NCBI GenBank assembly: GCA_965262915.1 | Contig: OZ253564.1 | Coordinates: 672,001 to 736,000 of the forward strand | DNA length: 64,000 bases | Source of the DNA: Candidatus Spongiisociaceae bacterium | GTDB taxonomy: Bacteria; Actinomycetota; Acidimicrobiia; Spongiisociales; Spongiisociaceae | Direction: 5' to 3' | Shown: piece after piece, positions 70 through 39,003 of the stretch | Layout of the letters: each line of letters begins with the position of its first letter | Position numbering within the stretch: position 1 is the first letter of the stretch | Program-made: the position numbers and the translations under genes | The notes under the pieces: model-generated | Seen by the model: the letters and a program-made list of their open reading frames with translations, nothing else | Told to the model about the DNA's origin: nothing | The model's database searches: none

Positions 70-235
70 CCGTGAACCCCCGTCCGTTGCGAACCTTGCC
101 GGCGTCCCACGACAGCAGGAACTACATGGGCAACTCGACGGGCTGCTGCCCGGTTCCGGCCCTCACAGGGCGTGAGGTCAGGGTGTTCCGGCGCCCTTCG
201 GAGCGATCAACCGGTCGGGTCGCTTGGGCTGGAGT

Positions 236-12104: not shown

Positions 12105-12561
12105 CCGTGAACCCCCGTCCATTGTGAGATCCCCCCTGTTCAGATCCCCACCAGCAGGAACTATATAGGCAATCGACGGCCTGCTGCCCGGCTCAGGCCT
12201 TCACAGGGTTCCGAGGTCCGGGTTCCGGCGGCCCTCGGAGCGATCAACTGGTTCGGTCCCTGGGTCTCGGTGTATTACTTAACAGCATCAGAATCGCCTG
12301 CCGCCGCCGCCGGCGGGGTTTTGGCTGATGAGGCGCCAAGTCTGGCGGAAAGTTCAGATGCTCACCCGTCATCGGAAGCTGCGAACAGGGGTAGCACCGG
12401 TTGTGGCGGCGCTCTGGCTATCGATACTCAACGAGCTGTTCGCCGCACCGACCGTATAGCCGGGGCGTGGCCGGACGCACAAGGCGTCGCGCACGCCACA
12501 CGGGGTGTACCCCCAGGCGTTGTAGGTGGCGCCGAGGTCCAAGCCCAACAGTTCCCCTAAG

Positions 12562-14341
12562 CCTGAATCCACCGACGGCCTCCCCGGGGGGTGGTCCGGG
12601 TGCGGTTGGTGGGGGGTTGAGGGGTTGGAGCTGGTTGGTGTCGGGAACTTTTGGGGGTGTGGTGCGTGTGGTTTGGTGGGTTAGATCATGTTGGAGGCTG
12701 GTTGGGGTTGTTTCTGGCGTGTGTGGCTGGGGTTTGGGTGGTTGGTTATGGTTGTGGGGGGTGTGTGGGGCCGGGTTAGCAGAGTTGGGGCAGCGCCCGG
12801 AGGTTAGTGAGGGTGGTTAGGTAGGTGCCGGCCCAGGGCCATCGGGCGGGTAGACGCACGAGGCGGCGTCCGCTGTGGTTGACGACCCGTCCAGGGAGCC
12901 CGAACAGTCGGGTACGGATTGTGCGTCCACAGACCAACCGCCCAGCCCGATGCGTTCCGCCGAGGAGGCCTATATGGCGGTAGAGGTTATGGGCCAGAGC
13001 GGCGCACAGCAGCCAGGCGGCGTTAGCTGCGAAGACGCCGGAGGGTAGGTGGGCGAGACCCCCGGAGTCTTTGAGGTCGCGGATGGCGAGTTCGCATGTG
13101 GCGTGGCGGCGGTGGTACCGGTCGGCTTCGACCACGGCCGTCCCGTTGTTGTCCTTCCGCGGGTTGTCACCGATCTCTGTAGCTGGCAGTTCGGCCACTT
13201 CGGTGTCTTGTCCGGCCCGGGGTTGGTGGTGCTGGTCGGCTTCTGCCGTGGCTAGGTCCAGGTTGGTGACGAAGGTGTGGTGACGCCAGTCGGGGAACAA
13301 CTCGGCTTGGGAACCGAGCAGGCGGGTGCGGCGCACCACGAGACGAACCCTGCGTTTCTGCGACCGTTTCCGGGGGTTGGTCATCTCCAGGACGGTTTCC
13401 GCGACCTGTGCCTGGCCGCCTTCGGGATAGGCGATGGGGACCCACGCGTCTTTGTCGATATTGTTGATCAGTGTCCTGACCTTGTCGTTCACCTGGCAGG
13501 TGATCGACCAGCCCACCCCGAGTTTGTCGAGGGCGGCCAACATGGCATAGGACCAGAACCCTGAATCGGCCCGCACGCTCACCGGGCCCCTGGCCCCGGC
13601 CCGTCGCACACGCCGGATCGTCTCCCCGACGAAATGGACCACACCCCTCTGCGATGCTCCTGCACGCAGACGGGCACCGACCACCTCCCCCGTATCGGCT
13701 CGGAACGCCAACAGAGGGTGATAACCCAACTCTTTGGTGTAGCCGTAAGCGGCCCCTTGTTTGGTCTTGCCCGACACCGCACAGATCGTCGAGTCCACAT
13801 CAACGGTCACCGCACCATTGGAGGGACCGGCACCCGCCCGCCACGCCCGGCCCAGCGCCGAGGTCAACACCTTCTCCAACTGGCGTACATGACCCCAGGT
13901 GAACGAACGCAGGAAGGTTCCCACCGTGGACGGGGCCATCACCGCATGGGGCAACACCCGGTCGGTGGAACCCGCCCGGAGCCGACCCACATGGTCAATA
14001 TGGGAGCCGCCCACCAGCATCGCAGCTACCACCGTGCACACCTTACGACCCGGATTCGCTCCACCCACCCGGCCACCCAGGCACACCGTCCGATCCACCA
14101 AATCTTCCAAACCCAGCCGGTCCATCAACGTCCCGGCTACCAGCAGCCCCGCGTCGGCCACCAACCCCTCATCGTCGAAAACCACCTCATACCGGTCGAT
14201 ATTCTGCAATACTTCACTCACAGGAAGTGCCTCCTGACTCCGGGCCAATAACCTTGTTTCGTATCGCTATTGTCCCAGATCAGAGGCACTTTCCGCGTCT
14301 ATCCACCCCCAACCACAGGATATCTACCAGGTGGATTCAGG
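12562..14341 (-). mobile_element. IS1380-family element, copy 1 (transposase 12776-14248)
   Basis: IRs CCTGAATCCACC/GGTGGATTCAGG; CTAAG duplication; DVDSTI, GYHPL, RADSGF motifs. Confidence 0.92.
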
Positions 14342-14739
14342 CTAAGTGGGGTCTTCGCGACCACCCCTGACCAGGGGTAATGGTAGGGGTCCCACGAGCC
14401 TGTCACCTCCTCAACCGGAATCTGTCACCTTGTATCACCAACTGCGAATCGAACGGCTTAGCCGGGCGTGGCCCTCGTCGCTCACTTGGATTCCCCCACC
14501 CGCCGGACACCAACTCGGTCGTCTCCAGCCGACATCCAGGCTCGTAACAGATTAGGGACCATGTGGAACCGGTCCAGGACATGGCGGGTGTCGGGCAGAT
14601 ACTGCGCGATAGCGGCCTGATAGGAACGTGACCCGTCCGACACGACTATCTCCACCCGCTGGCACCAGCGTTGCCCGTGTTCGCGTAAGAACCTGCTCAG
14701 AGACGTGTTGGTGGGGCCTGGGCACTATCCTCACATGCC

Positions 14740-15138
14740 ATGCCTGTGAAAGTTGTCGGTGTAGGAACGTTGGACGGCTACCGCATCTGGGTCCGCTTCG
14801 ACGACGGAACATCCGGCGACATCGACCTAGCGCATCTGGCTGAAATGCCCATGCACAAACCGTGGCATGACCCAGCCGTGTTCGCGACGGTCCGGGTCGG
14901 CCCATACGGGCACTCTGTGATCTGGTACACGCCGCCGGTCGATGTTGATCTGGTCGCCCACTGGCTGTACACCGAAATAACAGGCGTGACGATGCCGGAG
15001 TTGATGGAACGGCAGGGCATCAAACCGCCGGGTCGTTTCACGCACTGGCAGATCAAACAGTGGGAAAGGTGGTGGCGTCTCCTACGGCACCTACGCCGTG
15101 GAAGACGCCAGCCACGCTCAGCAGGTGACCATGGTTGA
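14740..15138 (+). CDS. DUF2442-like protein
   Basis: GYRIWVRFDDGTSGDIDL...DPAVFATV...SVIW...VDL. Confidence 0.8.
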   Translation: MPVKVVGVGTLDGYRIWVRFDDGTSGDIDLAHLAEMPMHKPWHDPAVFATVRVGPYGHSVIWYTPPVDVDLVAHWLYTEITGVTMPELMERQGIKPPGRFTHWQIKQWERWWRLLRHLRRGRRQPRSAGDHG

Positions 15139-15385
15139 GCTAGACCGCTTGCGCGACGGGGACATCCGAATATGTATGTTCGTGGACCACCCCCCGCCGC
15201 ACATACACGCATACCAAGCGGAGCACGAGCTGGAGGTAGACATCAAAACCTTCTCCACCAAAGGGAGAATGCCTAAGACGCGAGCAGCGCGAGTGGTCAG
15301 CTATGTAAGAGAGGATCAGCAGGCTCTTCTAGATGCCTGGGACTCGCTCGCTCGGGGAGTCACCCCATCTCGACTGGACCGCTGA
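15131..15385 (+). CDS. DUF4160-like putative toxin
   Basis: IRICMFVDHPPPHIHAY...GRMP...LLDAW. Confidence 0.8.
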   Translation: MVELDRLRDGDIRICMFVDHPPPHIHAYQAEHELEVDIKTFSTKGRMPKTRAARVVSYVREDQQALLDAWDSLARGVTPSRLDR

Positions 15386-15741
15386 ACCTGCCACCACCAC
15401 CCCGCAACCACCGCCACACACCAGCCAATTCCACCCCGAACACCCCGAAATAGGCCAGAATCCCCACCAACATCCCTAACCCGCGAACTCAACACCCCAC
15501 AACACGCGAAGACCCCGTTGTGGGATGTTCGCCACCATCCCTGACCTGCGGTGATACGACCATGCCCACGGGGACTTCCACATTAACAGTGGGGGGACTT
15601 CCACATTCGGCAGCCAGCCTCCACCCTCCGCCCGCGGGTCGTTCCCGCGTCCGGTGGTGTAGTCTGCGTGATAGGCGACCCGTCCGGCGAGACTAGTGTG
15701 CCTGTCCCTTCGGTACGCCGATTGGAAGGGAGGAGAGAGCG

Positions 15742-16123
15742 CATGGTCGCAGCAACTACATCAAACCCCGACGTAGACGTGTACACCGACCGGGACGGCC
15801 GGCGTTACGTAGTCGACGGTCGCCTACCCCCCGGCGACATGAAGTACGTGACCCGTGTCAAGCCCCTCCGGGGGCTTCGCTTATGGGTCGAGTTCCGTGA
15901 CGGAACCAGCGGCGTCGCCGACCTGTCGGAAATATCGGCCGCGTCGCACCTCGCGGCGGCCCTGTGGTCGGACCGGGAATACTTCGAGACGGTTCATGCA
16001 CTCGACGGCGGCGGCGTCTCCTGGGAAGACGAACGCTACGACATGAGCCCTCTCGTGCTTTACATGCTGGTCACCGGCAAACCTTTAGACGAAGTATGCC
16101 CACAGGTCAGATACCTCGACTGA
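15742..16123 (+). CDS. DUF2442-like protein
   Basis: VKPLRGLRLWVEFRDGTSGVADL...YFETV...VSW...DMSP..LY. Confidence 0.8.
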
Positions 16124-16124
16124 C

Positions 16125-16400
16125 ATGCCCAGGCTGTCCACGTTCTATGGCATCGCCATCTACATGTATTACAGCGAACCCCATCTGCAGCCCCACTTCC
16201 AAGCCGTCCACGCCGGTAAGGAGATAACTGTAAGAGTCGCGGATATGAACCTTCTTGCCGGCGGCGTAGGGGCCATTTCGACACGACTGCATGGAAACGG
16301 GTACAGAAGTGGGGATGGCTACACCAAGCGGAGCTGTTTGACCGTTGGGAGACTAGGAGCCGGGGAGGGGAGCTCCCCCCGATAGCTCCCCTCCGGTAAG
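16125..16400 (+). pseudogene. DUF4160-like protein, 3' frameshift
   Basis: MPRLSTFYGIAIYMYYSEPHLQPHFQA. Confidence 0.75.
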
Positions 16401-16841
16401 AACCGCTCGTGATGCCATTCACCTGCCTCCTGCTCCGGGCCGTTTCACCACAACCACCCCGAACACCGCCACAACCGGCTCTAAGACCCCCGAAACCACC
16501 CAAAACCCCGACCGAACCCCCTAACCCGCGAACTCAACACCCCACAACACGCGAAGACCCCCTGGTGGGGTCTTCGCGACCACCCCTGACCAGGACCTTA
16601 GCCAACAGCCAGGGGAGGACGTCACCTGCAGGGACACGACTACGTCACCTCACCTCAGTGGCTGAGAAGGCGGCGAGGCTAGCCCGGTACGGCTAGTTTG
16701 CTGATCGTCAGCGGCGCCAGTTGGCATCAATTGCCAGATGGGCATGGAGCGGCGGCGGAAGCGTCACGGCTGCCGCTGAGCAAGGGAGTTAGAAGTGATC
16801 GAAGTAGGTGACCCGAGGTCAGATGGCGACCTTCCTGCACC

Positions 16842-17114
16842 GTGCGGGCGTTCAGTGACATGAAGGAGCATTATCACTGTGTCCACACCTTCGGCAAGGA
16901 CAAGGTTGTCGGTGCACGTTGCTGGAGCAAGCATGGCCGTCCCGACCTAGCCCTGCGGCATCGCCGCAACAAGGAGGAGTTTCGTGAGATGTTGGTCAGG
17001 TGGGGGACCGTGCGATGCGAAGGCAATTGCTCTGACTTCACGCGGTGGAAGGAGATACCGGCGTGGAGGGTCATATGGCTGGAAGCTCCTCGTCCAGTGG
17101 ACGGTGGGCAATGA
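16842..17114 (+). CDS. hypothetical protein
   Basis: 90-aa ORF in cargo orientation; no motif recognised. Confidence 0.35.
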   Translation: MRAFSDMKEHYHCVHTFGKDKVVGARCWSKHGRPDLALRHRRNKEEFREMLVRWGTVRCEGNCSDFTRWKEIPAWRVIWLEAPRPVDGGQ

Positions 17115-17262
17115 AGCGGCTACTCGCCACGGCCGGAGTGGTGTGAGTGCTGGTGGGTTCTGCTCCCCCGGTAGGGGGCGGGCGGCCCTAGAGCGATCCG
17201 TTAGACAGACTGTTGACGTGTCAGTCCCGCTACTGAGGGAACGTGGGAACAGCGTGGTTGCC

Positions 17263-18614
17263 GAGGCTGCGCGAAAACGTGGGTTTTGGCTGTGCTGGCG
17301 CTCGGTGTGGGGTCATGTTACGAGGATTCCTCGGGCGGCGTAATTGTCGTAGTTGGTGAACCCGTGGGCGACGCGTCGTAGGACTTGTAGGAGGTTGTTG
17401 ATCCCTTCGATGGGTCCGTTGGATACCCGTCGTCGGGTGGTGTGGTAGGCCAAGATCTGTTCTCCCCATGCGATGATGGTGTCCACAACTTGGTGGTATT
17501 CGGGTATCTGTCCGGTGGCGTAGAGATCGGCGAACCGTCCTAGGGCCTGGTTGGCCCCGTCGAGGTCTTCGGCTTCGTAGAGCTGGTAGAGCTCTTGGAG
17601 CGCGTCCCACGCGGTTCGGAGACGGGGATGGGCGTCGAAGATCCGGTCGAGATGGCTCTGGTGGGCGTCTGTGAGATGATCGGCCCGCCGCAGCAGGGTG
17701 AAGCGGGCTCGGAACAGGTCAGGTTCGAACGTTGGGGGACGCTGATCGGGGTCGCGGCGCTGGAGCTCTCTTCGCACGAGGGTGAGGCCTTGGGTGAACC
17801 AGCGGGCGACGTGAAAGCGGTCCAACACATGGCGGGCACCGGGAAGGTATTGCGCGATGGCAGCTTGGTATGAGCGGGACCCATCGCTGACAACTATCTC
17901 CACCTGCCGGCACCACCAGACCCCTTGATCCCTGAAGAACCTGGACAGGGACCCTTTCGTGCGGCCTGGGATCATCGCTAAGATCTTGCCGCTCTCACCG
18001 CAGACGATCACGGTCACATACCGATGCCGGCGCCGTATCGACGTTTCGTCGACCAACAGCACACGACACGGACGGGCCCGGCGACGCTTCGCCACCACAG
18101 CCGCCTCCGCTCTCACCAGGCCCATGATCCGATGCCACCCCACTCCGTGGTGACGGGACGCTGCCCGAATCGACATCACCCTCGCATCTGCCACTAGGCG
18201 GCGGGCGAACCGGCGGGTAAGCCCACCGGCGAACTGGTCGTGGTCCTGGAGGTGGCGCTCCCCGCAGTTCGAACATTCGAATCGGCGACGCCTCCACACC
18301 AGCGTTGCACGGCGGCCGCTCACCCCAAGATCACGAACCCTCTTCGGTCTCCTGTCCCACACCCGAAAGCAGCGGAACCCGCAATGGCGGCACCTCGACC
18401 ACTCCCGGGTTGATTCCACCTCCACCTCGAGGCGGTCAACAGAATCGACCCCCACCCCCCTCACGCGAACACCCCACAGGTGCAAACGAACAGACATAAC
18501 ATCAGACATCGAGGCCTCCCTGGACCGGCGAGCTAGTACTTCACCGATTCCAGCGAGGCCTCACCCCCATTCCAAGGATTTCACCCCACCCAACCCACGT
18601 TTCCGCGCAGGGCC
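17263..18614 (-). mobile_element. ISL3-family element (transposase 17313-18509)
   Basis: 8-bp duplication TGGTTGCC (17255, 18615); zinc finger, VDETS, DRFHV, NGPIEGINN. Confidence 0.92.
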
Positions 18615-18642
18615 TGGTTGCCTCTACCCTGATCACAGAGCC

Positions 18643-19545
18643 TTGGAATCGTCGTGCATGAGTAGTACTAGTGATTCCACAAAGCTCGGCACGTTGCTAC
18701 GTGAATGGACTGATTCGGAGTTCTGTGGCGATCTGGACCGTGTATTGAGCTCGATTCCTCGCTTGCTGAATCTGCCGAGCTATAACTTCCGTCATGGCTT
18801 GTGCCCAGCCCTGCAGTCCTTGGATAGTCGTATAGCGGGGATCGGTTTGCACAATCTGGAGTGGCACGGCGGAATCCCTCGCATGCCGCTCGCGCCATCG
18901 TTCGAATCGATCAGTAGGCCCCTTGAGCATGTGGCATACAGTCTCAGCGTATCTGACTCACCGCGGCGGCTGATGTCATATCAGGTGGCAGCAGGCGCAG
19001 GAAGCCATCTTGAGCAATGTGTGAAGAGGGTCCCAGAGGCGCCTCAGCGAACGCCGTTAGGGGGACTCGTACAGCCGAGCCAAGGTCGAGTCATCAGCAT
19101 CCTTGGGGAGAGGCTCAGCCGTTCTATCCGTGAGTACGCCCGTTTCGCCAACATGCCAAAGCACGTATTGGCGGATGGACACAACGAGGAATCACCGATC
19201 AGCTTCATCGTGGCCGTCAGGTCGTACTTTGTGTCTCGTGCCCTCGGTGCCCGTGTTCTGGAGAAACTCGGAATCCTCGATGACCTCGCAGCTCAGACCC
19301 AGGACGCGGCCCGGTTTGGCCGATTTGACACGGATAGCGACACAGCGGATCCCGTAACTTACCTGCGGGATACGGGTCCGGCCGAAGCAGTAACTGTCCG
19401 ACCTATCGACGTTCGCGCCCTCCCCGACTTCGGAGACTGGTTGGAGAACCTTCGGTCACCCACACGAATAGCGGTTTTCGCAGCGATACAGCGACTGGCC
19501 GACGCCTACGGCGACGAGTTGGCTGGCCCACATGTTGTGCCTTGA
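18643..19545 (+). CDS. hypothetical protein
   Basis: 300-aa ORF with protein-like composition. Confidence 0.6.
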   Translation: MESSCMSSTSDSTKLGTLLREWTDSEFCGDLDRVLSSIPRLLNLPSYNFRHGLCPALQSLDSRIAGIGLHNLEWHGGIPRMPLAPSFESISRPLEHVAYSLSVSDSPRRLMSYQVAAGAGSHLEQCVKRVPEAPQRTPLGGLVQPSQGRVISILGERLSRSIREYARFANMPKHVLADGHNEESPISFIVAVRSYFVSRALGARVLEKLGILDDLAAQTQDAARFGRFDTDSDTADPVTYLRDTGPAEAVTVRPIDVRALPDFGDWLENLRSPTRIAVFAAIQRLADAYGDELAGPHVVP

Positions 19546-19563
19546 GGAAGAAGGGCGTTTCTC

Positions 19564-20088
19564 TTGAGGCCCGAAACGCCAGCCCATACGTTATCAGTCG
19601 TATTCTCCCAGCTATGGGGGGACCAGGCGGTCCTCCTGTTCGGCGTGAACGACTGGGACATGGAGAAGCGACCCCTGAAACATATGCGCATGGCTATGAG
19701 GCGACGCCGTCAGGCAGCACGCTCAAGGGGAAGGACGGTCACGTTGTCCGACCTGATCGGCCATCTCAACAAGGAGACGCAGATCGAGTTCGATGCGGCT
19801 ACGGCCTACGCAGCAGCAGTCTCTATCGGATACCAAGAGCGGCAGATAAGCCAGGCACGGAGGCTGATACAGGTTGACTTGGACTTCATAGACAAGATGC
19901 CGACGAACGTAACCGACTCAACGCCAGACGATGACAACCCGGCCTACTACCACAGAAGAGCCTTGGCCTCGCTCAGGCTAGGCCCCGACATGCTGGCAAA
20001 CCTCCCGTACGAAGAACGCGTCCCCTTGGTACCGGTGCACCAGCGTGTACCTCCAAAGGCATGGGAGACGTGGCTGCAACGCGACTGA
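19564..20088 (+). CDS. hypothetical protein
   Basis: 174-aa ORF ending just before the cassette right end. Confidence 0.55.
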   Translation: MRPETPAHTLSVVFSQLWGDQAVLLFGVNDWDMEKRPLKHMRMAMRRRRQAARSRGRTVTLSDLIGHLNKETQIEFDAATAYAAAVSIGYQERQISQARRLIQVDLDFIDKMPTNVTDSTPDDDNPAYYHRRALASLRLGPDMLANLPYEERVPLVPVHQRVPPKAWETWLQRD

Positions 20089-20433
20089 ATTAGGCGCTCG
20101 GACCAGATACGCAAAGTGATAATCGGGCAGCCTCACCAACCCAACGCCCGGGCCAGTCCACACCCACCCAGAACCGCCCCCTAGACCATCATCGGCGACC
20201 CACCACGCTGAACACACCCGAACACCCCTGAAACAGGCCAAAGATCCCGCCAACACCCCTAACCCGCGAACTCAACACCCCACAACACGCGAAGACCCCT
20301 AAGTAGGGGCTGGAGCCCATAGGGGTCTTGGCGACCGGCATCGTCCTGGCAGTCCTGACCTAACCCGTACTAGCGGCGAACGGTGGTCACGCGTCGGCAG
20401 GGTCGCTGGCCGTGTCGCCGTCCGGATGCAGCG

Positions 20434-20862
20434 CTAGCGGATCCTTCGTCGCCTGTGGTGCCCGGCTCTCCTGTGCCGTCCCCTCCCGCTGCCCACGAAC
20501 GCGTCGATCAGGAGCAGGAGTACGGCGATCAGGAGGACTCCCAGCATTATGGGTATCGCCGCCACCATCGAGATCGTCAGTCCGGCGACGGCCCACTCGC
20601 GGCCCTCCCCGCCGTCCCGGACGCTGCGGAGCCCCGCCCAGGATAGCGACGCCCCCACCAGGATCAGGATCACGCACCACGTCACCGGCTGCCCTGACGC
20701 CAGGAACCTCACCAGGTTCGACCAGGTCCACCCGTGGCTGAACCACCAGGCGGTCTGCAGCGTCGCGGCGGCCAAGGCGACGACGAAGCCCGCTACGGGT
20801 AGGGTGCCCGACCAACCGGGATGCGGTCGGTAGACCTCTAGATATTCTCGTGTAGTCATCAC
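20434..20862 (-). CDS. small integral membrane protein, copy B
   Basis: Near-identical to 2369-2800. Confidence 0.75.
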   Translation of the reverse strand: MMTTREYLEVYRPHPGWSGTLPVAGFVVALAAATLQTAWWFSHGWTWSNLVRFLASGQPVTWCVILILVGASLSWAGLRSVRDGGEGREWAVAGLTISMVAAIPIMLGVLLIAVLLLLIDAFVGSGRGRHRRAGHHRRRRIR

Positions 20863-20945: not shown

Positions 20946-23795
20946 TGGAGTTGCCCCGCTTTTTCGGACACTTCGCGATTTGTTATCCACAGGGTGGTTG
21001 GGGACTCGGCTCGTAGTCTACGGGTGAGTGGTATCCGATGGCTGAGTGCCACCGGTGGGGTTGTAGAAACCTTCGATGTAGTCGAAGACGGCGGAGCGGG
21101 CCTGGTTCCGGGTGGCGAAGCTGGTCCGGTCCAGGAGTTCGGTCTCGAGGGTGGCGAAGAACGACTCGGCTACCGCGTTGTCGTAAGCGTCGCCTCGTCG
21201 TCCCATCGATACTGCGATGCCGGCTTGGGCACAGCGGGCCCCGAACGCCCCCGAGGTGGGTTGGGAACCCCTATCCGAATGATGGATCACCCTCTCCGGC
21301 CGTCGGCGTGCGATGGCCATGTCCAAAGCGTCGGTGACCAGCGGTGTAGCCATGTCATCTCGCATGGACCATCCAACGACCCGCCGTGACCAGACATCGA
21401 TCACAACCGCGAGGTACCCGAACCCTGCTCCCGTCGGGACATACGTTATGTCCGATACCCAGGTTCGGTCTGGCCGGAGTTTGGCGGGTGCGTGGGGGTT
21501 TGGTTATGGGGGAGGCCGCTGACCTGGGGTTTTGCGGTGTTGGGTACCGTTTGGGTAGGGATTTGTAGGGGCGACATATGGTTGGTTGGCCGGGCTGTTA
21601 GTGGTATTATCCTGGGGTATGTTCGTGAAGACGACCCGCCGCCGCAGGGGCGACAAGGTGTACGAGTATTTGTCTTTGGTGGAGTCCGTCCGCGACGGCC
21701 CGAAGGTCGGGCATCGGACCCTTCTGCGCCTGGGGGAGGTGACCGCTTTACGCGAGTCGGGCCAGCTGGAGCGGATCGTGGCCGCCCTGGAACGTCATCT
21801 ACGACGCGAACGGGTCGATGTCGGGGCGTTGGCGGCTGAAGGGGCGCCCGGGGTGGGGGCGGTAGCGGCGGTGTGGGCGGTGTGGCAGCGGTTGGGCCTT
21901 GGGGAGTGGTTCGCTGCGGTCGGCGCCGTACGGGGCGCGAAGGCCCTGGAGCATGCGGTGTTCGCGATGGTGGCGAACCGGCTGGTGGCGCCGTGCTCGA
22001 AGCGGCGGCTGGTCGAGTGGGCGGCTTGTGATGTGGTGATGCCCGATGGCTGGTCGGCTCCGTCGCTTGACCAGTACTACCGGGCTTTGGATGCGGTAGC
22101 CGCCGCCAAAGACGGAACCGAAATGCATCTGTATGCGCGGTTGTGCGACTTGACGAACCTGGACCTGAGGCTGGTGTGCTACGACGTCGCCTCCACGTAT
22201 TTCGAGGGTTCGACCCGTCCCTCTGAGCGGTTCCCCTCCCGCGCGTTCGGGTACTCGCGGGACCATCGCGCGGATCGGCCCCAGATAATGATCGGCCTGT
22301 TATGCACCTCCGATGGGATCCCTATCGCCCATCGGGTGTTTTCGGGGAACACCAACGACGCCACCACCCTGCCGGCCGTGTTGGGCGACCTCGCGGAGCG
22401 GTTCGCGGTGGGCCGGATCTGTGTAGTCGCCGACCGTGGCCTGATCTCGGCAGCCAACATCGACGTGGTCGCCGAAGCCGGGTTCGACCACCTATTAGCC
22501 ACGAAGCTGCGCCGCGACCGCATCAGCACCGAAGCCCTTGCGGCCATCGAGGACGACACCGCCTGGGTCGACATCGCCCAGCTGTGCTGCCGCGCCGCCG
22601 ATATCTGCCTCGACGACGGGACCCGCGCGGTTGTGGTCGAGTCCGACGCCCGCGCCCGCCGAGACGACGCCCGCACAGCGCAGATCGTCGCCACCGCCGA
22701 GGCCAAGCTCCCGGCGTTGGAGCACCGCGTCCGCGCCGGGCGGCTGAAGGACTCCGCCAAAATAGGGGCAGCCGCCCAGCGCATCCTCGCCTCCGGCGGC
22801 GCGGGGCGGCTCTTCGACACAGAGATCGGAGCGGGCCGGTTCCTCTACCACTACAACGAAGACGCCCACGCATACGAAGAACTCCTCGCCGGTCGCTACG
22901 TGCTAGCTACCAGCCTCACACCCAACCAAGCTGACACCGCCCAAGTCGTGGACTACTACCGCCAACTGCAAGCAGTCGAAGCCCGCTTCCGGGTCGTCGG
23001 AGACTTCCTACGGCTCCGCCCGGTGCGGCACTGGACCGAACAACGAGTCCGCGGCCACGTCGCTGTCTGCGTCTACGCCACCCTAATCGAGACCCTCATC
23101 AACCACGCCCTCGTAGCAGCCGACGTCCGCGACTCCGACCTCGGCGACCAACACCTCACCGCCGCCCGAGCCCTGCGCGACCTCAACCGCATCCGCCGCC
23201 ACCAACTCACAGCCAACAGTCGCCGAATCCATCTCACCACCCGCCGAACCCCCCTACAAAACCGAACCCTCACCGCCATCGGAGCAGACACCCGCACCTG
23301 GGACAAAGCCACCATTACCTGACCCCATCACCAGCCCCCACACCGCCCATGTAGTGGAAACACCCCACCCCCAAACCCCCCTGACCAGGCAAAACGCGAA
23401 ACACCCGCCAAATTCGGGTCTGGTCCGTCAGCTGTGAACTCTCTTCGTACCAGATCAGGTGCCGCCGCCTGGGCGGGATTCTGCCTGGTAGTAGCTATCT
23501 TGCGGCGGCGGTGAACACCCTGGATACGGGCCTGGCGTATGAGACGGGCTACCCGCTTGCGGCCCACACATACACCCTCGAAGCTCAGTTCGGCGTGAAT
23601 GCGGGGAGCACCATAGGTGCCCCGTGACCGGCTGTGGATATCGACGATCCGGTTCCGCAGTGACCGATCAGCGTGTTCGCGGGCGGATGGGCTGCGGCGG
23701 AGCCATGCGTAGTAGCCGCTGGCCGACCACACCCAGCAGGCTGCACATGCGCCGCACGGAATGGGAGGCCTGGTTGGCTTTCACGAACCCATGAG
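20946..23795 (-). mobile_element. IS3-family remnant (orfB) interrupted by IS1634
   Basis: TYGAPRIHAEL, HHSDRGSQ, DNAVAESFFATLETE; IR TGGAGTTGCCCC. Confidence 0.85.
21474..23418 (+). mobile_element. IS1634-family element (transposase ~21619-23322)
   Basis: IRs CCGGAGTTTGGCGGG/CCCGCCAAATTCGGG; TCTGG duplication; STYFEG, FGYSRDHR, VADRG, RPVRHW. Confidence 0.92.
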
Positions 23796-38835: not shown

Positions 38836-39003
38836 GGATTGGTTCCTGTTCTGGATGTGGGCCGTGGGCATCCTTTTGGGTGCCGTCGGCATCGCGACCG
38901 GCATCGTCCTGGCGGCCGTTACCTGATCCGAACCACGGACGGATCCGATGTCACGGCCCCTCAAGGCTGCTGCTCCCACGACTGCCGCGACATCGCGGAA
39001 TCG

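Follow-up and report, generated by a model that had tools for sequence, protein, structure and literature searches.

The subject of this work is a train of gene cassettes in a 64,000-nucleotide stretch of DNA (the window; contig OZ253564.1, positions 672,001 to 736,000 of the forward strand) from Candidatus Spongiisociaceae bacterium, whose genome is a single 5.06-Mb contig referred to below as G000. Sequence comparison combined with repeat and pattern scans resolves the train into three cassettes set off by stretches of five base pairs (bp): TAAGT (14343-14347), cassette A (14348-15516), GTTGT (15517-15521), cassette B (15522-16561), CTGGT (16562-16566), cassette C (16567-20299) and a second TAAGT (20300-20304), all on the plus strand. 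An identical 25-mer opens cassettes A and C, the left 25-mer of B shows four mismatches to it, the right-end 43-mer is identical in all three, and the 12-bp tips are perfect inverted repeats. A preliminary description of this DNA had proposed exactly such cassettes, with 5-bp spacers inside the train and TAAGT on either side, and the scans bear it out. The first junction is also seen in public sequencing runs, whose contigs were mapped to window positions 12300-20700 and show the presence of an arrangement, not its frequency: a contig of run X12 (14369-15977) bridges A-GTTGT-B. Since the left 25-mer of B matches exactly two further left ends in G000 (at 1597043 and 1598255, in elements whose right ends are of a type of their own, with two direct 20-nucleotide (nt) repeats), B is a member of a subfamily and not a decayed copy, and it is a hybrid of a B-subfamily left end and an A-type right end.

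The cassettes carry genes and lack the means to move themselves. In A, the left tip and two GTCACCT repeats (positions 55 and 77) are followed by cargo and the right end; the cargo consists of a fragment of an ISL3 transposase (14556-14722, minus strand, found by repeat scan and Pfam) and, by domain matches, a DUF2442 gene (14740-15138) and a DUF4160 gene (15098-15385). Cassette B has cargo of the same kind in the same order, DUF2442 (15668-16123) then DUF4160 (16125-16385), the latter apparently truncated in that only positions 1-41 of the 65-position profile are matched; the earlier statement that cargo differs between cassettes therefore does not hold for A and B. Cassette C contains three open reading frames (ORFs; 16842-17114, 18643-19545 and 19564-20088) with no family match in Pfam, NCBIfam, PADLOC or the protein atlas, and for the cargo of all three cassettes the last two resources yielded no family. 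An ISL3 element (17255-18614) interrupts C, and contigs of a C free of it (joint 17254 to 18615) occur in four of four runs. Its transposase gene (17313-18509) lies on the minus strand, as does the ISL3 fragment in A, which contradicts the claim that all cargo reads from left to right. Library scans find no cognate transposase gene in A, B or C, the only transposase content being the unrelated ISL3 sequences. On this point the preliminary description was right, with the addition that C ends in a stretch (about 20128-20188, just before the right end) 82% identical to the final 60 nt of the family transposase gene described below. Because C retains this 3' remnant, the cassettes are taken as deletion derivatives. 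Cassettes A, B and C are non-autonomous members, of the kind called mobile insertion cassettes (MICs), of a rare transposon family of Acidimicrobiia: their ends closely match those of autonomous copies in G000, and they have passenger genes, no cognate transposase and a target duplication.

That TAAGT is a target duplication of the whole train follows from an empty allele in the public runs. The joint 12553 to 20296, with eight shared letters (CCCCTAAG), lacks both the train and its left neighbour, an IS1380-like insertion sequence (IS), and occurs in contigs of two studies: in X5 at depth 72 (shorter side 22 letters) and in X7 at depth 22.7 (52 letters, one mismatch in 221). The IS1380-like element itself (12562-14341, minus strand; transposase 12776-14248, PF13701 and PF01609; inverted repeat) is unrelated to the cassette family, and its own duplication, CTAAG at 12557-12561 and 14342-14346, overlaps the left TAAGT of the train, so it arrived after the train. 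The duplication had originally been argued from a minus-strand reading frame restored by removing both insertions. That frame is indeed continuous across the join, but it has no support as a gene and was a weak argument, which the empty-allele contigs make unnecessary. A search for the empty allele in 40 relatives by means of both flanks gave only matches of 69-79% identity that could not be aligned across the junction. A short X5 contig has a different joint (14376 to 15474; shorter side 24 letters) between the first 29 nt of a left end and the right 43-mer, which hints, with some uncertainty, at a cargo-free miniature element of the family; this joint and two others (15518 to 16567 and 15546 to 16567) are not assignable to a place, given that the ends are repeated and the sides are shorter than 30 letters.

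The same ends recur through the genome. Tip and end pattern scans find about 30 further family ends in G000, including the copies with other cargo and 5-bp flanks that the preliminary model implied. They form arrays at 1596053-1604015, 1661584-1689799 and 4155525-4181769, and solo copies such as 476302-479044 (duplication TTGGT) and 3624645-3643793 (19 kb, duplication GTAGT). The ends are conserved over about 110-130 nt and the interiors are unrelated. Left ends have two direct repeats, at positions 55 and 77: 11 of 20 left ends have two or more occurrences of the motif GTC[AT]CCT, compared with one of 5000 random-sequence 140-mers. B-type left ends have a different repeat at matching places, and in right ends the tip motif recurs about 23 nt inward. 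Such asymmetric left and right ends would fit orientation-specific insertion. Three right ends are adjoined by a pair of genes (1661794-1664546, 1676907-1679647 and 4155733-4158468), always an ORF of 315-317 amino acids (aa) and then one of 576-600 aa toward the right end. The units carrying them, here called E5', E8' and the tRNA-Arg copy, are the transposase-bearing relatives whose existence had been anticipated: autonomous copies in the same genome, with zero to two mismatches in 25 positions of the left end and two to eight in the right 43-mer. Their layout is a left end (tip and two subterminal repeats), cargo, a 317-aa gene, a transposase gene of about 600 aa, and a right end of about 210 bp; the cargo includes an HKD+Snf2 protein, a type IIG restriction-modification enzyme and an MmeI-like enzyme.

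The larger protein has the features of a DDE transposase. Residues D217, D340 and E515 are invariant across 17 homologues, as is Y508-x2-R511-x3-E515, and K522 is present in most rows; E515 lies in DYAGRNPVEGVNGMIK, which carries the Y-x2-R-x3-E-x6-K signature (YREK motif) of IS4-type enzymes. An AlphaFold model (predicted local distance difference test, pLDDT, 75.9) finds as its best PDB match the Tn5 transposase (1muh; E-value 1.7e-4, 529 columns, template modelling score only 0.32-0.40). Sequence profiles are far less informative: a profile search of the PDB gave nothing meaningful, and the NCBIfam scan gave only weak matches of the C-terminal part to IS1182 and IS5 models (NF033551, IS1182, 25.8 bits against a cut-off of 270), next to 23 bits for PF13751 (cut-off 25.1) and, for one of the three copies, 18.9 bits for PF01609 (cut-off 23). 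The family is very rare, with 26 homologues, none of them named, among 5.8 billion clustered proteins. Both the GGGG tips and the 5-bp duplication seen here are typical of the Tn3 family; a Tn3-family origin was considered and rejected, there being no TnpA of about 1000 aa (PF01526) and the only PF01526 match in G000 being a 260-aa open frame (4453004-4453471) far from any element.

The smaller, 317-aa protein, called the partner here, resembles enzymes of another kind. It has no Pfam or NCBIfam match, a Pfam search with 20 homologues also gave nothing, and its 32 homologues among the same clustered proteins are unnamed apart from a distant match labelled "integrase" by its source. The predicted structure (pLDDT 78.2) is that of a tyrosine recombinase: 34 structures match at an E-value of at most 0.001, the best being XerA, Cre, XerH and Tn1549 Int (E-values 1e-5 to 1e-3), in both domains. 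A sequence-profile search of the PDB returned only XerA (E-value 0.38), and in that weak alignment the partner has GAGLL where XerA has GAGLR, with the arginine of the HxxR box kept. The first catalytic arginine is replaced in most partner rows, and a tyrosine is missing from the C-terminal alignment block (columns 301-372) in all 20 aligned homologues. From the alignment and the model we read the partner as a DNA-binding protein that would no longer be able to recombine. A complex prediction for transposase and partner, run without controls, scored 0.00, which speaks neither for nor against an interaction.

How regular the junctions are was measured by a scan of 42 genomes for exact 9-nt tips with 0-20 nt allowed between them. 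All 12 family junctions found, three in G000, three in G010 and six in G001, have exactly 5 bp; the sole other match was an unrelated hairpin in G038, and reversed-pattern controls gave no matches. A collection that tolerates mismatches holds 24 junctions from six genomes, 22 of them with spacers ending in GT. This regularity bears on the simplest account of the locus, that it is ordinary debris in which decayed copies of a known IS came to be adjacent by chance or tandem duplication, with random flanks. The region is rich in insertion sequences (IS1380-like, ISL3 and IS3-like fragments), as that account would have it, but exact 5-bp spacing at all 12 junctions in three genomes, conserved ends around unrelated cargo, the existence of an empty allele and the failure of any curated IS family to score above threshold make it very improbable.

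Most arrays end at a tRNA gene, and at a fixed distance from it. Seven of the eight arrays with a recognisable right tip have that tip 3 nt past a tRNA (genes called by ARAGORN), with the tRNA 3' end facing the tip. In G000, tRNA-Glu ends at 1596049 and the tip stands at 1596053, tRNA-Met ends at 1661580 with the tip at 1661584, and tRNA-Arg ends at 4155521 with the tip at 4155525; the gap is the same in G001 (Met), G010 (Leu), G003 (Leu) and G025 (Met). The exception is a tRNA-Met of G005 (L071, G005:C110, 5370-5380) with a gap of 9 nt (AAC AACGCA), which looks as if a TGCGT-type spacer had been retained beside the native ACAAC 5-mer. Beyond these arrays, the order of partner and transposase genes is kept in clades only 30-33% identical, and at least 10 of 31 loci have a facing tRNA 144-248 bp beyond the point where the transposase match ends, the clades of about 30% identity included; assuming a 3-nt gap in those clades yields no convincing left tips. 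All 31 loci, from a species-representative genome collection, are in metagenome-assembled genomes titled Acidimicrobiia, Acidimicrobiales or only "bacterium". As a side observation, tRNA-Arg(acg) of G000 is followed immediately by 16 consecutive C (237400-237423).

The position of the tip accounts for the spacers. The duplicated 5-mer consists of the last two called tRNA bases (AC for Glu and Met) and the three bases downstream, and in the orientation of the element it reads GCCGT at tRNA-Glu and GCTGT at tRNA-Met. Spacers have the form NNNGT because GT is the reverse complement of the terminal AC of the tRNA, which explains the remark, made on the three window 5-mers alone, that all end in GT. 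Moreover, the tRNA-side copy of the duplication restores the target, so that a later arrival can land at the same point and consecutive spacers come out identical: TTCGT occurs four times around three elements at tRNA-Leu in G010, and ACCGT spacers occur in an array ending at tRNA-Val, ACCGT also being the 5-mer of the tRNA-Val site in G000. The window spacer GTTGT equals both the 5-mer of the tRNA-Met site (AC+AAC) and the array spacers in the congeneric G005.

Insertion beside tRNA genes is also what a site-specific recombinase might do. In that explanation, modelled on integrons, tycheposons or Tn916, circular cassettes bearing a right tip, 5 bp and a left tip would be integrated at tRNA ends or at existing junctions by a tyrosine recombinase (the partner or one acting in trans), and the 5-mer would be a crossover or coupling sequence. 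The partner does have the full two-domain fold, tRNA 3' ends are the classic integrase target, and 12-bp inverted arms around a short spacer resemble a recombinase core site. We nonetheless consider this unlikely. First, the partner lacks a tyrosine in the C-terminal block in 20 of 20 rows and mostly the first catalytic arginine, as described above. Second, the duplication is only 5 bp long and includes no duplicated tRNA fragment. Third, off-target copies are flanked by the unrelated 5-mers TAAGT, TTGGT, GTAGT and ACCTT. Fourth, even in the clades of about 30% identity the partner has beside it a conserved DDE transposase whose catalytic residues are intact.

Whole trains appear to move as units, as the preliminary description had inferred. 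The clearest record is an array in G001, GCTGT-[E1 TGCGT E2 TGCGT E3 TGCGT E4]-GCTGT-[E5 GCCGT E6]-GCTGT-[E7 TCTGT E8]-GCTGT-tRNA-Met, in which three composite units each have the local 5-mer around them and foreign spacers inside, the internal GCCGT being the 5-mer of the tRNA-Glu site. The corresponding array of G000 has E8'-GCTGT-[E4' TGCGT E5']-GCTGT-tRNA-Met where G001 has E8-GCTGT-tRNA-Met, a difference exact to the base. Identity between the two genomes is 99.5% over the 8.6 kb of E1 and its distal sequence and 99.0-99.9% in E7 and E8, with an average of 94.6% in an alignment that takes in the transposase region and the flank on the tRNA side. On this comparison the two genomes appear to be a filled and empty pair for a 15-kb two-element train with duplicated GCTGT, inserted on the tRNA side of the array. 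Two further composites are found in G000: GCCGT-[two B-type elements joined by TCTGA]-GCCGT-tRNA-Glu, and the entire 26-kb tRNA-Arg island, which is flanked by GGAGC. Arrays also decay. Relative to G001 (locus L068), G000 has at 1687150-1687155 a 25-bp deletion between two ACCCC repeats that took out the E1-E2 spacer together with 20 nt at the start of the E2 left end and so fused two cassettes, which shows one route of decay.

These nested duplications weigh on a further alternative, copy-out/paste-in transposition with abutted ends (as found in circles and tandem dimers of IS3, IS30 and IS256), in which the right end would attack the DNA 5 nt outside a neighbouring left end, the intervening DNA would be lost and arrays would be zipped together. 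It would explain why spacer and duplication are of equal length, and why NNNGT stands beside the left end in solo and array copies alike. It does not explain why runs of identical spacers repeat the local tRNA 5-mer (TTCGT four times; ACCGT at tRNA-Val), as repeated insertion predicts and zipping does not, nor why a duplicated GCTGT flanks the very train that differs between G000 and G001. In addition, the closest fold to the transposase is that of Tn5, a cut-and-paste enzyme. We regard copy-out/paste-in as quite unlikely.

Taken together, the anatomy of the ends, the 5-bp rule, the homing to tRNA genes in a constant position and orientation, the stacking, the empty allele, the moves of composite units and the intact autonomous copies are best explained by a family of tRNA-homing DDE transposons whose cassettes stack and whose trains are mobile as units, a reading we hold to be probable. 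The DDE enzyme would be the engine that cuts and joins. It would make a 5-bp staggered cut and insert the element in one orientation at a fixed point of the tRNA 3' end, so that the right tip comes to lie 3 nt beyond the tRNA; the duplication would regenerate the target, later arrivals would land at the same point, and head-to-tail arrays with exact 5-bp spacers would result, presumably with the newest unit nearest the tRNA. Any left end together with any downstream right end would serve as a substrate, so that trains would move and carry their internal spacers along, and these spacers would be a record of earlier landing sites. In the window, A-GTTGT-B-CTGGT-C would have been mobilised in trans into an off-target site ending CCCC-T-AC, with duplication of TAAGT, and the IS1380-like and ISL3 elements would have arrived after that insertion. 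The partner would bind DNA and steer insertion; whether by reading the tRNA end or the tips, a role as target selector, by analogy with TnsF (below), is suggested tentatively. A fuller version is more speculative than the mechanism as a whole, and we offer it as possible, with some doubt: a minimal two-protein, site- and orientation-specific DDE transposon, steered by a domesticated, catalytically dead tyrosine recombinase to tRNA 3' ends and possibly to its own tips, would build self-extending arrays whose spacers form an ordered record of landings, those in other genomes included. The preliminary model, a gene-accumulating platform made of transposon ends and mobilised in trans, was thus largely right. 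Its cassettes are indeed flush with one another, but an attraction to a resident end is not needed, a fixed point at the tRNA and a regenerated target being sufficient.

Several observations weigh against parts of this explanation. Spacer diversity is low (TGCGT six times and GCTGT four times among the 24 junctions), so some nested matches could be coincidence. At three places the distance between a right and a left tip is 21, 22 or 43 bp, outside the simple model; the distances of 21 and 43 bp involve degenerate right tips in G000, and that of 22 bp runs from the right tip of C to a left-tip-like 15-mer in the window. The case for transposition is made from assembled sequences, of which the metagenome contigs show presence only, and the difference between G000 and G001 could be a precise loss instead of a gain. 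It is an alignment and a model that point to an inactive partner, and in library scans the transposase reaches no curated family cut-off. The window site is not a tRNA: no tRNA or other RNA gene was found there, and the right flank, read in the tRNA direction, ends ...CAGCCCC-T-AC, so that its CCCC-T-AC may loosely resemble an acceptor end. Finally, neither GTTGT nor CTGGT matches any site of the 50 tRNAs of G000, so the window spacers may record landings in other genomes.

The flanks of the train hold traces of other insertions. The 15-mer just mentioned (GGGGTCTTGGCGACC, 20322-20336, plus strand) matches the left tip at 14 of 15 positions (12-mer match at 20322) and is probably the leftover left end of an older element fused to a gene remnant, namely the C-terminal residues (...GVLATGIVLAVLT*) of a small membrane protein at 20305-20352 (plus strand), which are paralogous to the ORF end at window 38840-38927 (plus strand); the fusion appears to run through a shared GCGACC. 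A paralogue of the left flank (G000 671518-671750) can be followed across the join for a few bases. The target locus also has a paralogous copy at G000 667067-674838 (including window 106-230 and 2423-2838), with both flanks at 81-92% identity. Insertions of about 4.2 kb and 2.7 kb interrupt this copy in turn, so that this type of locus seems to be an insertion hot spot. Right of the train, IS debris includes an IS3-like integrase-core fragment (21018-21404, minus strand) and the start of another transposase gene from 21620 (plus strand). The one notable hit of the search for RNA genes is on the left: positions 14222-14340 (plus strand) match the Rfam family Ms_IGR-7, a small RNA (sRNA) of Actinobacteria, with 44.9 bits, just under the gathering score of 45. 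The match falls within that end of the IS1380-like element which is upstream of its transposase, and this "sRNA" family may in fact be an IS end.

In the literature searched, we found no description of the family or its arrays, or of the combination of a Tn5-like transposase, a recombinase-like partner, tRNA homing, and trains with nested-duplication spacers; supplementary tables of PMC10293859 or of the tycheposon paper cited below could list relatives. If the proposed mechanism is true, these elements are a gene-accumulating platform that is neither integron nor integrase island, in which a tRNA-adjacent target is regenerated, cargo (restriction-modification, Snf2/HKD defence, DUF2442/DUF4160 pairs) is stacked, and stacks are reshuffled as trains. 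The nested 5-mers would then offer an unusual route to the order and origin of insertions from sequence alone.

Comparison with known systems shows what is shared and what is not. The preliminary description called the array integron-like, which holds as an analogy: integrons too line up promoter-poor cargo cassettes in a single direction, with a conserved imperfect palindrome at the boundary of each. No IntI, attI, Pc or attC is seen in or beside the window array, however, the likely engine is a DDE transposase in place of an active integrase, transposon ends with their target duplications mark the limits of the units, and transposition takes in whole trains. Tycheposons are cargo elements that integrate at tRNA genes, where successive integrations stack into islands (Hackl et al., bioRxiv 10.1101/2020.12.28.424599). 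Stacking of cargo beside a tRNA is common to both, but tycheposons use active tyrosine recombinases and have partial tRNA copies between units, whereas here the engine is probably a DDE enzyme, the duplication is 5 bp only, and no partial tRNA copies acting as att sites were found in the family junctions examined. The Tn3-family MICs of Xanthomonas consist of transposon ends around passenger genes, have no transposase, are mobilised in trans and generate a target duplication (PMC4337579). Cassette ends, passengers, presumed trans mobilisation and duplication are all shared with the present cassettes, which differ in forming ordered trains with exact 5-bp spacers at tRNA ends and in having a parent transposase that is not of Tn3 type. 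In the ISAba32 subgroup of the IS1202 family, one end lies 5 bp from a XerCD site and the duplication is 5 bp (Siguier et al., bioRxiv 10.1101/2022.12.17.520857). DDE insertion 5 bp from a tyrosine-recombinase site with a 5-bp duplication is comparable, but those elements use host XerCD sites and have neither cargo nor arrays, whereas the present family has a recombinase-like gene of its own and targets tRNA ends.

Tn5/IS50, of the IS4 family, is the best structural match: a DDE enzyme with Y-x2-R-x3-E-x6-K that moves composite units between suitably oriented ends. The target duplication of Tn5 is 9 bp, whereas here it is 5 bp, and the present family differs further in its asymmetric ends with binding-site-like repeats, in its specificity for site and orientation, and in its partner gene. 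For the partner, the closest parallel is TnsF of Tn6022-like Tn7 elements, which has an inactivated tyrosine-recombinase domain and selects the target comM (Faure et al. 2023, PMC10293859). Both are DDE transposons that encode an inactivated tyrosine-recombinase protein, inactivated in the present case on the alignment and model given above. Tn6022 relies on TnsABC and TniQ; beside the right ends described here only two conserved genes are seen, in an analysis that included no search aimed at TnsA, TnsB, TnsC or TniQ, and the target is the tRNA 3' end. If the dead recombinase is a selector here as well, this would be a second, independent recruitment of the fold for transposon targeting. Compared with the Tn7 case it would also be far simpler, with a single Tn5-like transposase and one partner acting at a fixed point in a fixed orientation, and attractive for mechanistic study.

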